From an uncultured Candidatus Saccharibacteria bacterium (lineage in GTDB: Bacteria; Patescibacteriota; Minisyncoccia; Phycocordibacterales; Zambryskibacteraceae): a DNA stretch of 64,000 bases. Below, piece after piece: positions 35,111 to 44,951 of the stretch. The notes below the pieces were generated by a model. The model ran no database searches. It saw nothing but the letters and a program-made list of their open reading frames with translations, and had not been told where the DNA came from. A program made the translations under genes and the position numbers. The stretch lies in assembly GCA_964642835.1 (NCBI GenBank), contig CAZXQA010000001.1:325387-389386 (forward strand), given 5' to 3'. Positions within the stretch are counted from its first letter, which is position 1. The number at the start of each line of letters is the position of its first letter.

Positions 35111-36307
35111 TTAATACCCTCTCAAGCGGTCGATCTTGTCGTGCTGACGGATCTTCTCGTGGGCCTTAGCTTCGATCTGGCGGATACGCTCGCGCGTGAC
35201 GCCGAAGACCTTCCCCACTTCTTCGAGCGTGTGCTGGATCCCGTCGTGGAGACCGTGACGCATCTCGAGAATCTTCCTCTCCTTGGGTGGCAGATCATTC
35301 AAGATCTCGCGCACTTGGTCGGAAACAATACGGCGCGAAGATTCCTGGTCCGGAGAGAGAATCTTGTCATCGGCTAGGAAGTCGCCGAGCTTACTCTTCC
35401 CTTCCTCTTCTTCACCTACCGGAGTCTCAAGGGAGACGGTCGACTGGTCAATCTTCTCGATCTGATAGATCTTGTCGACGTCAAGGTTCATCTCCATGGC
35501 GATCTCCTCCTGCAGAGGTTCACGGCCAAGGTCCTGCGTCAAACGACGCACCACCTGCTTGTACTTAGCGATGGTCTCGACCATGTGCACCGGCACGCGG
35601 ATGGTGCGGCTCTGGTCGGCCAAGGCACGAGTAATCGCCTGACGAATCCACCACGTGGCGTAGGTCGAGAACTTGAAGCCCTTCGTCCAGTCGAACTTCT
35701 CGACGGCTTTGTGGAGACCTAAGTTGCCTTCCTGAATAAGGTCGAGAAGCGTGAGGTCAGGAGAGCGGTTGGCGTACTTCTTGGCAATGGAGACCACGAG
35801 ACGTAAGTTCGCCTTCATGAGAAGGTTCTTGGCGTCAACGTCCCCTGCCTCAATGCGCTTGGCGAGCTCTTTCTCCATTGAGCCCGCAATGAGCGGATAC
35901 TGACCGATCTCGCGCAGATACATCTGGATCGAGTCGTAGCTTGAGTCGCCGCGAGAATACCCATACTTCTTGTCCGTCGGCTCCTCATGCACCTCAAGAA
36001 GACCACCCCCTTCGAGAATGTCGATACCGAGGTTATGGAGCTTCTCATAGAGTTCGTCGAGGAACATGATGTCAGTCTCGATCGTTGGGAATTCCTTGAG
36101 GATTTCGTCGAAGGTGACGAAGCCGCGCTCCTTGCCGCGGGTGACGAGGCGTTCGGTGCGGAGAACCTGGTCGACCTTATGTTTGACCTGCTTAGAAGAA
36201 ATTTTCTTTGCCTTAGGGGTGGCTTTAGTTTTTTTAACAACTTTTTTGGCCGGCTTTTTTGCCGGTTTGGCGGGCTTTCTATTCTTTTGTTTTTTTGACT
36301 TGGCCAT
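35111..36307 (-). CDS. rpoD: RNA polymerase sigma factor RpoD (primary sigma-70).
   Basis: A Lys-rich N-terminus. Regions 1.2-4 are present: [28 protein letters not shown] (2.x), and the region 4 HTH. Confidence 0.95.
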
Positions 36308-36355
36308 TATGGAAACGGATTTTTATTATACAACAGATATTACCTTCTCGGAATA

Positions 36356-37954
36356 CTACTCTTCGAGCGCGCGGATCTCTTTCAACACTTTCTGAATCTG
36401 GCCGGAGAGTTCGAGTACTTGTGCCTCATTTTTAGAGGCTTCGAACCCCGCTAAGGCGACCATGAGTGTGCCCAGTTCCTCGCGGAGACGCTCCTGACCC
36501 AAGTGCGTGAGGAGCTCTTTCTCTTCCGCGCGTAAGGCGTCAGTTTCCTTCCCTTTCTCCGGCAACTCCTTGAGCCAGGTGCGCACTTCAGTGAGGCGCT
36601 CCTCGACCCTCTCGCTGCGCCCCTTCGCCTCGTTCACGATGACAGCCGCTCCACGCTCTTGTCCGGACACGCGCTGCGGGGTAGGCGCTTTCATCTTGCG
36701 AAGGTCCTCCCAGATCATCTCTTCCTTGACGCCCGTGCGCTTAGCAATGAGAGAAACGAAGTGAGAGCGCTCGATCGAGCTTGAGAGGAGGGCTAGGAGC
36801 GGAAGGAGCTTGACCACAATGAGCTTGCCGGCTTTACGGCTCTCCTTCTCGGTTTCGAGAATCTTTTCCAAGAGATGCTCGATGGCCGGTTTGGCCTGGC
36901 GGAGAATCTCTTTCCACGTCGCCGGGTCTTGCTTAATGACGTCCGCCGGATCGCTTCCTGGCGGCAGCTTGGCGATCTTTACCTCTAACCCCAGGGAGAG
37001 CGCGAGCTCAGTCGCCTTCTCTCCCGCCTTCTCTCCCGCCGCGTCACCATCAAACGCGAGAATGATCCGCGGCGAGAGACGCTTGAGTCTCTCGAGATGC
37101 GCCGCCGTGAAGGCAGTGCCTGAGGAAGCTACCGTGTTCCCCACCCCGGCTTGATGCGAGAGCACGAGGTCCATCTGGCCCTCGACGAGCACGGCGTAAT
37201 TCTTTTTCCGCACGTCTCCCTTCGCTTTGTCGAGACCGTAGAGGAGTTCGTGTTTGGCGAAGAGCGCGGTTTCCGGCGTATTGAGATACTTCGGTTCCGT
37301 CTCCTTCGCGAGCGCCCGACCTGAGAAGCCGGTAATCTCACCGTTGGGATCGAGAATCGGGAACACCAAGCGGTCGCGGAAGACGTCGTAGGGCTCCTTC
37401 ACTTCTCCCGCGACAGGTTTCGTAAGCCCCGCTTTCGTAAGCGTCTCCTTGTTGAAGCCGCGCGAGAGCAAGTGGTGATAGAGGGCGCGCCACTCGGCGG
37501 GAGCGTAGCCGATGCGCCACTTCTTCACACTCTCGTCGGTGAGGCCGCGCGTCTGGAGATACTCTCGCGCTTCCGCGTGTTCGGCGAGCTTCGCTTCAAA
37601 GAACAGCGTGGCTTGCTCAAGCGCGTCACGGAGACGCTCTTTCTCACTTTTCTCCTGGGTACTCACTTCCCTTCCTTTGAGCTCTACGCCCGCTCGATCA
37701 GCGAGCTCCTTAAGCGCTTCGCGGAACGAGAGACCCTCCGTTTCTTGAACGAAGGTGAAGATGTCTCCCTTCGCGCCGCACCCGAAGCAGTAGTAACTCT
37801 GCCTCGCGGGCGAGACGAAGAAGGATGGTGTCTTCTCGTTGTGGAAAGGACAGCGTCCTTTGAAACTCGTGCCTGACTTCTCTAGTTTGACGTGTCCTCC
37901 AACAATCTCGGCTATATCTAGCCGTTCTTTGATTGTTTCGACGTCGCCTCCCAT
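36356..37954 (-). CDS. dnaG: DNA primase.
   Basis: The Zn-binding domain is CPFHNEKTPSF...YYCFGCGAKGD, followed by the TOPRIM domain (EGQMD...). The start overlaps the rpoC 3' end by 37 nt. Confidence 0.9.
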   Translation of the reverse strand: MGGDVETIKERLDIAEIVGGHVKLEKSGTSFKGRCPFHNEKTPSFFVSPARQSYYCFGCGAKGDIFTFVQETEGLSFREALKELADRAGVELKGREVSTQEKSEKERLRDALEQATLFFEAKLAEHAEAREYLQTRGLTDESVKKWRIGYAPAEWRALYHHLLSRGFNKETLTKAGLTKPVAGEVKEPYDVFRDRLVFPILDPNGEITGFSGRALAKETEPKYLNTPETALFAKHELLYGLDKAKGDVRKKNYAVLVEGQMDLVLSHQAGVGNTVASSGTAFTAAHLERLKRLSPRIILAFDGDAAGEKAGEKATELALSLGLEVKIAKLPPGSDPADVIKQDPATWKEILRQAKPAIEHLLEKILETEKESRKAGKLIVVKLLPLLALLSSSIERSHFVSLIAKRTGVKEEMIWEDLRKMKAPTPQRVSGQERGAAVIVNEAKGRSERVEERLTEVRTWLKELPEKGKETDALRAEEKELLTHLGQERLREELGTLMVALAGFEASKNEAQVLELSGQIQKVLKEIRALEE

Positions 37955-44792: not shown

Positions 44793-44825
44793 AAAAAGGT
44801 CACAAGCGGGTTAAGGCTTGTGACG
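44793..44825 (-). terminator. Hairpin plus U-tract in the rpoB 5' leader, 10 nt upstream of the start codon. It is a candidate attenuator.
   Basis: The minus strand has gtcacaagc-cttaaccc-gcttgtgac followed by ctttttccgctttatcATG. Confidence 0.4.
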
Positions 44826-44922
44826 AAGCTATTAAAGTGTGAGAACTGAACCCTTCCGAACGTAGTTTTCCCCTAGAAACTACTTCGTTTCAGCCATAAC
44901 TCAATCGGGTCGAAGTGAAAAG

Positions 44923-44951
44923 ATAATACTCCCTCTTTTAAGAGCTGTCAA
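44923..44951 (-). promoter_or_regulatory. Sigma70-like promoter for the rpoB-rpoC-dnaG-rpoD unit. The -35 TTGACA is at 44946-44951 and the -10 TATTAT at 44923-44928.
   Basis: The minus strand reads ctatTTGACAgctcttaaaagagggagTATTATc, with a 17-bp spacer. It gives a leader of about 130 nt. Confidence 0.5.

Follow-up and report, generated by a model that had tools for sequence, protein, structure and literature searches.

The linkages between rpoB and rpoC and between dnaG and rpoD are among the most conserved gene pairs in bacteria, and autogenous control of the beta and beta' subunits of RNA polymerase is established in Escherichia coli. Translationally coupled overlapping genes, which are expressed by termination-reinitiation or by 70S scanning, usually overlap by 1 or 4 nt. 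The authors who described the RNA motifs Lacto-rpoB and Rhodo-rpoB suggested that different bacteria employ distinct RNAs for controlling the genes of their RNA polymerase (PMC5737381). Here we analyze a 64,000-nt stretch of the genome of an uncultured bacterium deposited as Candidatus Saccharibacteria and placed by GTDB in the Zambryskibacteraceae of the Patescibacteriota (assembly GCA_964642835.1, contig CAZXQA010000001.1, positions 325,387 to 389,386; hereafter, the window), in which rpoB, rpoC, dnaG and rpoD lie head-to-tail, with dnaG starting inside rpoC. We interpret this locus as a lineage-typical operon in which rpoB-rpoC is joined head-to-tail to the dnaG-rpoD portion of the macromolecular synthesis (MMS) operon, and whose expression would be governed by control in the rpoB leader and by translational reinitiation; we assign this interpretation a probability of about 0.7.

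A compact block of four genes

All four genes are encoded on the minus strand, as are the signals described below for the block. Profile searches identified rpoB (44782-41582), encoding the RNA polymerase beta subunit (1066 aa from the conserved ATG; 1416 bits against NF001616, cut-off 896), rpoC (41574-37918), encoding the beta' subunit (1218 aa; 1488 bits against TIGR02386, cut-off 963.5), and dnaG (37954-36356), encoding a protein of 532 aa that, with 422.6 bits against TIGR01391 (cut-off 283.6), qualifies as a DnaG-type primase and contains the CHC2 zinc ribbon (PF01807), the DNAG_N catalytic core (PF08275) and the Toprim domain (PF13155). The last gene, rpoD (36307-35111), encodes a sigma-70 family protein of 398 aa with Pfam regions 1.1, 1.2, 2, 3 and 4 all present. 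The scores of this protein are below the cut-offs of the NCBIfam RpoD models (412 against 572, and 333 against 354 for TIGR02393), which might be expected of a divergent protein from the candidate phyla radiation (CPR). Its N-terminus carries a basic, lysine-rich stretch ahead of region 1.1.

The junctions were read directly from the sequence. The rpoB stop codon (TAA, 41584-41582) is followed, after a 7-nt gap, by the ATG of rpoC at 41574; the rpoC stop codon (TAG, 37920-37918) lies downstream of the dnaG ATG at 37954, so that the two genes overlap by 37 nt, with dnaG in the -1 frame of rpoC; and the dnaG stop codon (36358-36356) is separated by 48 nt from the ATG of rpoD at 36307, on the same strand. 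For rpoB, the start codon is the ATG at 44782 rather than the GTG at 44803 that appears in the list of open reading frames (ORFs), and the initial ATG GAC AAA is retained in close relatives. Across six close genomes, the spacing between rpoB and rpoC ranges from an 8-nt overlap to a 9-nt gap if an upstream ATG is taken as the rpoC start in one of them (L166), for which the public gene call gives 27 nt. An in-frame rpoB-rpoC fusion considered for two other loci (L093 and L097) was ruled out by direct translation, which revealed a stop codon between the genes.

The block is bounded on both sides. Upstream of rpoB, a sigma-70-type promoter (44951-44923) consists of a -35 hexamer TTGACA (44951-44946), a 17-nt spacer and a -10 hexamer TATTAT (44928-44923), matches 11 of the 12 consensus positions, and has a predicted transcription start at about 44916. 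By eye, a TTGACA-like -35 element followed at 16-18 nt by a TAnnnT -10 element can be recognized ahead of rpoB in no fewer than 16 of the 18 distant loci and in 5 of 5 close relatives; the -35 element is mostly TTGACA, and in a few cases TTGACT or TAGACA. In three related loci (L086, L094 and L107), this element is tandemly duplicated (TTGACAnnnTTGACA). Next upstream, a terminator-like hairpin with a T-rich tail (44999-44975; 9 pairs, 7 of them G-C) closes a unit that comprises rpsP, the gene khpA for a KhpA-type KH protein, trmD and the uncharacterised orf213. At the other end, 22 nt past the rpoD stop codon, a terminator-like hairpin AAAGGGCGGCCCGUGAGGGUCGCCCUUU with a U-rich tail (35088-35061; 12 pairs, 8 of them G-C) follows, and the same hairpin is found after rpoD in L166 and L169. 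A consensus scan of the minus strand detected no terminator-like sites at the internal junctions of the block and no promoter-like sites matching at least 9 of 12 positions before rpoC, dnaG or rpoD.

The next gene downstream on the minus strand encodes an AddA-like helicase-nuclease (addA, 34367-31413) and has a promoter of its own, TTGTCA-N18-TAAAAT, with the -10 hexamer at positions -12 to -7 from the ATG. The region between rpoD and this gene contains a small convergent ORF (34759-35052, plus strand) that is flanked by two near-identical G+C-rich hairpins (AAAGGGCG...CGCCCUUU), one at 34661-34688 on the plus strand and the other at 35061-35088 on the minus strand; a promoter-like site with 11 of 12 consensus positions (34398-34426, plus strand) points at this ORF.

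The initial annotation of the locus described four genes head-to-tail on one strand, with a 7-nt gap, a 37-nt overlap and a 48-nt gap, and the direct reading of the junctions agrees with it throughout; the span it gave to the block, 35111-44951, extends accurately from the rpoD stop codon to the first base of the -35 hexamer. It was also right that the canonical rplKAJL-rpoBC and rpsU-dnaG-rpoD operons are not found here, in that neither rplKAJL nor rpsU is adjacent. Its further statement that no ribosomal protein genes flank the block holds for rplKAJL and rpsU, which are absent from all annotated parts of the window, but needs to be qualified with respect to rpsP (47007-46702), which is located 1.9 kb upstream in the separate rpsP-khpA-trmD unit, with the terminator at 44999-44975 and the rpoB promoter intervening.

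Conservation of the gene order

For comparison, 80 loci from GTDB genomes and 80 from metagenomes were collected around relatives of the window DnaG, 4 closer relatives were added by exact-protein look-up, the four genes were placed in the sampled loci by tblastn, and the loci were binned by the identity of the top DnaG high-scoring segment pair to the window. The loci are among the matches listed: the scan of metagenome contigs with a single DnaG protein yielded about 30 relatives, and the scan of GTDB genomes with generic DnaG alignment patterns, which returned mostly other phyla and few Parcubacteria, provided negative controls.

Synteny, which the initial annotation had named as a way to check the block, speaks in its favor: the order rpoB-rpoC-dnaG-rpoD was found in at least 32 independent loci of Parcubacteria (Paceibacteria). 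The gene rpoC is located directly upstream of dnaG, on the same strand, in all loci with a DnaG identity of at least 60% (5/5) or of 48-60% (12/12), in 12 of the 16 loci at 43-48%, in 3 of 31 at 40-43%, and in none of the 56 below 40%, a class that takes in Saccharibacteria, WWE3, Uhrbacteria and many further phyla. Adjacency of dnaG and rpoD, in turn, was observed in 123 of 134 informative loci from many phyla. The wider synteny is retained as well, with prfB-rpsP-khpA-trmD upstream of the block and addA, dsbA, the RNase H-like gene rnh and hisS downstream. The homologs of the window DnaG bear Parcubacteria, Zambryskibacteria or Patescibacteria names, and three contigs encode an identical DnaG. 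Recurrence in at least 32 independent assemblies implies that the arrangement is due neither to chance nor to an assembly artefact, and by these comparisons the four-gene order is a trait of a clade of Parcubacteria (Paceibacteria) rather than of a single genome. We found no description of this gene order in CPR bacteria in the searchable literature.

The rpoC-dnaG overlap is dual-coding

In the 37-nt overlap (37918-37954), the 12 codons that end rpoC share their sequence with the 12 that begin dnaG. The same overlap is present in L164, L166, L167 and L169, according to independent public gene calls, and in L004, according to boundary calls made in this analysis, and it is stable across genomes in which DnaG is only 65-75% identical. 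In an alignment of six genomes, nucleotide identity is 0.93-0.96 within the overlap versus about 0.75 in the flanks. The same holds for third codon positions in both frames: in the dnaG frame, their identity is 0.88 in the overlap versus 0.37-0.61 outside, and in the rpoC frame, 0.93 versus 0.48-0.51. Synonymous sites frozen in this way are what translation of the two frames would lead one to expect. The overlap is thus real and under selection in both frames, which fits translational coupling of dnaG to rpoC; among the loci compared, the 37-nt overlap is restricted to the sub-lineage of the window.

A hairpin, CGGCUA-GAUA-UAGCCG (37909-37924), encloses the rpoC stop codon; in relatives, its stem is retained, with one G-C to G-U change, and the loops vary. 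The conservation of this hairpin is partly due to the coding of the DnaG N-terminus.

The mode of translation initiation in this lineage bears on how the internal genes of the block are started. Of the 56 genes called in four close relatives, only 12 are preceded by a Shine-Dalgarno-like motif. About 19 of the 65 ORFs of the window, for the most part those that head runs of genes, carry a TAnnnT hexamer that starts 12-14 nt upstream of the start codon, most often at positions -12 to -7 and often with a -35 element at 17 nt. Examples of this leaderless type include hisS, addA, rpsP and trmD, and ORFs with such a hexamer are found, for instance, at 28612 (plus strand) and at 34367, 23425, 52662 and 47007 (minus strand). 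The genome therefore looks largely leaderless and poor in Shine-Dalgarno sequences, a feature that affects the calling of start codons in annotation. Neither a Shine-Dalgarno sequence nor a leaderless-type -10 hexamer was found before rpoC, dnaG and rpoD, and, given the lack of the latter, these three genes look like internal cistrons. A candidate Shine-Dalgarno sequence for dnaG, AAGGA in the window, was discarded as not conserved, reading AAAGAA or AAAGAG in relatives.

A possible internal promoter of rpoD

Within the 48-nt spacer between dnaG and rpoD (36355-36308), 17 nt upstream of the rpoD ATG, lies a perfect TATAAT (36330-36325). This site is part of a motif, TTGTA(A/G/T)AAT followed by AATAAWAAACTGTT, that is found 12-20 nt before rpoD in all six close genomes, including the window and L166, in which the dnaG stop codon lies upstream of the motif, so that coding no longer requires it. 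The block could, then, function like the classical MMS operon, with read-through from the rpoB promoter complemented by an internal rpoD promoter for which TATAAT would serve as the -10 element, and indeed, internal rpoD/sigA promoters within or after dnaG are known in E. coli and Bacillus subtilis; for staphylococci, PMC2824700 may be consulted. The resulting transcript would have a leader of about 10 nt without a Shine-Dalgarno sequence, and this arrangement is compatible with the operon as we interpret it with respect to rpoB, rpoC and dnaG.

Several features of the site argue in the opposite direction. Its -35 element matches the consensus at 3 of 6 positions in the window and, as read from the sequences of the six genomes, lacks conservation, with 2-5 of 6 positions matched; the promoter scan did not call the site. 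Its distance from the ATG, 12-20 nt, differs from the geometry usual for this genome, in which the -10 hexamer ends 6-8 nt before the ATG. The motif shares sequence with the Leu and stop codons of dnaG in four of the six genomes, and its frame in L166 is still that of the former dnaG stop codon, so part of its conservation may be coding or historical. Finally, in most distant relatives, the dnaG-rpoD gap is only 2-21 nt long, which is too short to accommodate a promoter. The motif is accordingly best described as a candidate, either for a weak internal promoter or for an A-rich translation-initiation region. We consider an internal rpoD promoter to be a realistic possibility that falls somewhat short of even odds, and the MMS-like mode of expression, which depends on it, is a serious contender on which we would place a little under half of our confidence.

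A conserved leader upstream of rpoB

From the predicted transcription start to the rpoB ATG, the transcript would contain a 5' leader of about 134 nt (44916-44783), in which respect rpoB differs from most first genes of the window. The initial annotation did not mention this leader. A conserved leader was seen upstream of rpoB in the window, in L004 and L005, and in the loci L084-L107 and L164-L169. Its hallmark is the 8-mer core GATTG(A/T)GT (GAUUGAGU; 44906-44899 in the window), which is present upstream of rpoB in 17 of 18 loci, compared to a chance expectation of about 0.14. In these 17 loci, the core is located about 12-24 nt after the -10 element; over all leaders, this distance ranges from about 12 to 52 nt, with a 30-nt hairpin inserted in L004. 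An extended version of the core pattern has a single exact match within the window, namely, the one in the rpoB leader.

The core is predicted to lie in the loop of a 5'-terminal hairpin, P1, formed in the window by ACUUCG (44916-44911) and CGAAGU (44887-44882). In nearly all loci, the P1 stem begins at the predicted transcription start, and its arms vary while remaining complementary (ACUUCG/CGAAGU, GAGAU/AUCUC, AGAUU/AAUCU, CUAUUGA/UCAAUAG, GAUUGA/UCAAUC and AAUUGC/GCAAUU). On an alignment fitted by hand, 78.6% of the P1 cells are paired versus 42.8% in shuffled controls, the covariation score is 0.94 versus 0.23 in shuffles and 0.15-0.28 in slid controls, and the five inner pairs are formed in 15 of the 16 sequences, each by 4 or 5 pair types. 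In an independent control, the 8-mer was located some 100 times elsewhere in 2.26 Mb, and 11% of these occurrences had such a hairpin, compared to 13 of 17 leaders.

Downstream of P1, a second hairpin, P2 (44883-44862), has an AGGGG loop and is predicted by RNAalifold, with compensatory changes. Farther on, the segment GGUUCAGUU (44852-44844) is complementary to the core GAUUGAGU and could be its long-range partner; about 12 of the 21 leaders contain a core-complementary segment 43-63 nt downstream of the core (Fisher p about 3e-4, the range of distances having been chosen post hoc), which hints at a pseudoknot or an alternative pairing. The conserved block UUUAAUAGC (44836-44828) follows, and the leader ends in a candidate attenuator, a hairpin GUCACAAGC...GCUUGUGAC (44824-44799; 9 pairs, 5 of them G-C) with a U-rich run (44798-44789) that ends 16 nt before the rpoB ATG. 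The close relatives share P2 with its AGGGG loop, the UUUAAUAGC block, and the terminator-like hairpin with a U-run near the ATG. Among the 18 leaders, a comparable hairpin with a T-run was detected in 11 under strict criteria, versus about 16% of shuffled leaders.

Comparison with Rfam models, Lacto-rpoB and Rhodo-rpoB included, gave no match on the leader strand at E up to 10 for the leader of the window and at E up to 1 for those of four other loci. A covariance model built from the N-padded hand alignment was weak (0.57 bits per position), retrieving true leaders only at E = 0.0003 to 0.7, with a few false matches above that range, and is not relied upon here. The possibility of a leader peptide was considered and rejected, given that the ATG after the core is not conserved, being replaced by ACG in L167 and L169.

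Instead of forming an RNA structure, the conserved element GATTGAGT downstream of the promoter could be a DNA operator for a transcription factor, made up of ATTGA repeats in direct or inverted orientation. Many of the 5' arms do resemble the core, as in GATTGA-n3-GATTGAGT-n9-TCAATC, which gives the region the look of repeated boxes. However, the arms differ between lineages and nevertheless remain complementary (ACTTCG/CGAAGT, GAGAT/ATCTC, AATTGC/GCAATT, CTATTGA/TCAATAG), which is the behavior of an RNA helix, not of a protein-bound palindrome, and the stem starts at the predicted transcription start in nearly all loci, even though the core of L004 is shifted by the inserted hairpin. An operator is, in our estimation, an unlikely explanation of the element. 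The leader as a whole is probably the site at which expression of the four-gene unit is controlled.

Variation at the rpoC-dnaG joint

The spacers between rpoB and rpoC and between dnaG and rpoD are short in all 32 loci; it is the rpoC-dnaG joint that varies. Compared to -37 nt in the window and its close relatives, the joint measures -26 nt in L084, lies between +2 and +60 nt in most loci, and reaches 94-264 nt in four (L087, L098, L085 and L006) and 0.7-2.5 kb, with accessory genes, in seven (L088, L089, L100, L101, L103, L108 and L114). Accessory genes are inserted solely at this joint, never between rpoB and rpoC or between dnaG and rpoD, which shows that rpoBC and dnaG-rpoD are two modules. 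The inserted genes include those for a membrane-anchored hypothetical protein ending in ...LSTFKFTK, for a protein of 565-591 aa rich in cysteine, and for a small protein (128-138 aa) that resembles PemK/MazF when judged by eye. This distribution indicates an ancestral juxtaposition of the rpoBC module with the dnaG-rpoD half of the MMS operon and marks the joint as a soft spot in the resulting arrangement.

Conceivably, then, rpoBC and dnaG-rpoD could be two or more separate transcription units that merely abut, without read-through or translational coupling; accessory genes interrupt the joint in other lineages, or promoter-like elements are found at it, so the two modules can work apart. 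In the lineage of the window, by contrast, dnaG starts inside rpoC, the overlap persists despite the divergence of DnaG noted above, and the last 300 nt of rpoC contain neither a terminator nor a promoter-like site; a candidate -10 element in the rpoC end, TATAAG, reads TACAAG or TACAAA in relatives. Separate units are thus quite improbable for this locus. An artefact, be it a chimera of the assembly, a wrongly called dnaG start or a beta'-primase fusion produced by programmed -1 frameshifting, as might be suspected from the -1 frame of dnaG and the A-run (GGAAAAAC) before its ATG, can practically be dismissed, given that the same junction recurs in more than 30 independent assemblies, including the three contigs with an identical DnaG, that dnaG has no alternative in-frame ATG, GTG or TTG start upstream of the zinc finger, with the zinc-ribbon profile aligned from residue 5, and that a fusion is rejected because a TAA 15 nt upstream of the ATG closes the dnaG frame and no slippery site is conserved, the A-run reading GAACAA in L004 and GAGAAA in L167.

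A model for expression of the block

Under the operon interpretation, transcription would start at the conserved TTGACA/TAnnnT promoter (44951-44923), and the first nucleotides of the transcript would fold into a hairpin presenting GAUUGAGU in its loop. The structured leader of about 134 nt would end in the hairpin and U-run located 16 nt before the rpoB ATG, and the output of the unit would most likely be set in this leader, by attenuation, possibly autogenously. Given that Shine-Dalgarno sequences are rarely used in this genome, the internal cistrons would be started by termination-reinitiation: rpoC by ribosomes that have just terminated on rpoB, 7 nt past its stop codon, and dnaG, in the -1 frame, by a fraction of the ribosomes that move back 34 nt after terminating on rpoC. 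If only a fraction of the ribosomes that finish beta' start on primase, a low primase-to-beta' ratio would result, as we propose. The rpoD gene, 48 nt farther on, would be translated from the same mRNA, and possibly also from a transcript initiated at the weak internal promoter. Transcription would end at the strong terminator at 35088-35061.

A single transcription unit is well supported by the anatomy of the locus and by its conservation; co-transcription, attenuation, reinitiation and the resulting stoichiometry are predictions. We can envisage, more tentatively, a fuller scheme in which the leader represents a previously undescribed, CPR-specific cis-regulatory RNA, a third 'rpoB motif' that consists of the GAUUGAGU hairpin, a possible pseudoknot about 50 nt downstream, the second hairpin and the terminator; attenuation would autoregulate one mRNA that specifies all the enzymes by which RNA chains are begun on DNA, namely, beta, beta', primase and sigma, and the 37-nt overlap, frozen as it is, would serve as a fixed gear, setting a low primase-to-beta' ratio by backward reinitiation. 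This scheme is speculative, and the odds are against its being correct in full.

A number of observations weigh against the operon interpretation or parts of it. Co-transcription of the four genes is deduced from sequence alone. The perfect TATAAT within a conserved motif makes a start of its own possible for rpoD. In the seven loci mentioned above, rpoC and dnaG are set apart by accessory genes. In some relatives, the modules look independently promoted, with a portable TGGACG...TAAAAT element directly before dnaG in L006 and before rpoD in L103. With regard to the leader, the covariation in P1 is supportive but not decisive because the alignment was fitted by hand; single-leader tests for a stem around the core were not significant (combined p = 0.14); and RNAalifold predicted no pairs on an unguided MAFFT alignment, which is attributable to the differing loop lengths. 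The hairpin and U-run at the end of the leader could also be a loading or standby site for the ribosome (S1) and not a terminator.

The initial annotation had placed the four genes in one transcription unit behind a single strong promoter and had singled out the 48-nt dnaG-rpoD gap as a place to look for an internal promoter. The unit itself is favored by a compact, co-directional and bounded block that lacks detectable internal terminators and is conserved in the clade, with co-transcription as its predicted part. The promoter stands, with 11 of 12 positions at 44951-44923; that it is the single one is doubtful, and the least secure element of that reading, considering the TATAAT in the conserved motif of the gap, a site that combines a perfect hexamer with a weak -35 element and atypical spacing and was not called by the scan.

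This element, GGACGATTGCGCGnCnnGATTTCGnAAAATC, is present in only 2 copies in 169 loci, at positions 1786-1809 of L006, directly ahead of the dnaG ATG, and at 11744-11767 of L103, directly ahead of that of rpoD. It could represent a portable element of the promoter or hairpin type.

If the block is expressed as one mRNA, core RNA polymerase, primase and sigma would be produced from one controlled transcript, which would provide a simple, testable model for the proportioning of scarce enzymes in cells that contain few molecules of each. In a large, uncultivated clade of ultra-small cells, rpoBC and dnaG-rpoD are welded into one unit, without the ribosomal-protein partners (rplKAJL and rpsU) that tie these genes to translation in model bacteria. 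The long, near-invariant dual-coding overlap offers a natural case for reinitiation without a Shine-Dalgarno sequence, and the leader is a candidate for a new class of RNA upstream of rpoB that would extend the idea of phylum-specific RNAs controlling RNA polymerase genes.

Other features of the window

A candidate small RNA of about 225 nt is predicted on the minus strand at 47055-47317, between the release-factor gene and rpsP, with a promoter TTGACA-17-TAAGAT (47317-47289), a terminator (47082-47060) and a folding z-score of -3.4; it has no Rfam match and is absent from close relatives, in which the spacer is 10-40 nt long. The release-factor ORF (47351-48307, minus strand), which contains PCRF and RF-1 domains, overlaps a tRNA-Thr gene (48247-48322), so its true start must be further downstream. 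In relatives, the release factor is called at 292-293 aa, which is short for class I.

The tRNA genes of the window form two clusters, at 1219-1800, with three tRNA-Ala, and at 48247-50048, with two tRNA-Thr, two tRNA-Met and one tRNA-Asp. A type IV pilus cluster (55063-63301, minus strand) encodes PilB-like and PilT-like ATPases, PilC, a prepilin peptidase, several pilins and PilO; type IV pilus genes are common in CPR genomes.

Comparison with known systems

The locus is a lineage-wide variant of two textbook operons, and its unusual features are the selected dual-coding overlap and the dedicated leader with an attenuator-like end. As in the MMS operon (rpsU-dnaG-rpoD in E. coli and yqxD/P23-dnaG-sigA in Gram-positive bacteria), dnaG immediately precedes, in the same orientation, the gene for the putative primary sigma factor, and the sigma gene may have an internal promoter, here represented by TATAAT with a weak -35 element and atypical spacing. 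Unlike in the MMS operon, dnaG is preceded by rpoC, inside which it starts, and not by rpsU or a small ORF; rpsU was not found among the annotated flanking genes, and the internal terminator before dnaG and the multiple upstream promoters of the MMS operon have no counterpart in the window sequence.

With the rplKAJL-rpoBC operon of E. coli, the locus shares the position of rpoC immediately after rpoB, here with a 7-nt gap and no terminator, and, in place of the attenuator between rplL and rpoB, an attenuator-like hairpin with a U-run that precedes rpoB and may have a similar role. The two differ in that rplK, rplA, rplJ and rplL are not present upstream, their place being taken by orf213, trmD, khpA and rpsP, with a terminator separating these genes from rpoB; in that rpoB has a dedicated conserved promoter and leader; and in that the operon runs on into dnaG-rpoD. 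With respect to coupled overlapping genes in general, the start of dnaG near and upstream of the rpoC stop codon, without a Shine-Dalgarno sequence, is familiar, whereas the length of the overlap, 37 nt, and its near-invariance across genomes are not.

The leader is functionally analogous to the RNA motifs Lacto-rpoB and Rhodo-rpoB (Weinberg et al. 2010, 2017; PMC5737381) in being a lineage-restricted, conserved and apparently structured element in the rpoB 5' untranslated region. The analogy is one of function only: the leader has no covariance-model match, has a 5'-terminal hairpin with GAUUGAGU in its loop, occurs in CPR bacteria, and heads a four-gene operon.

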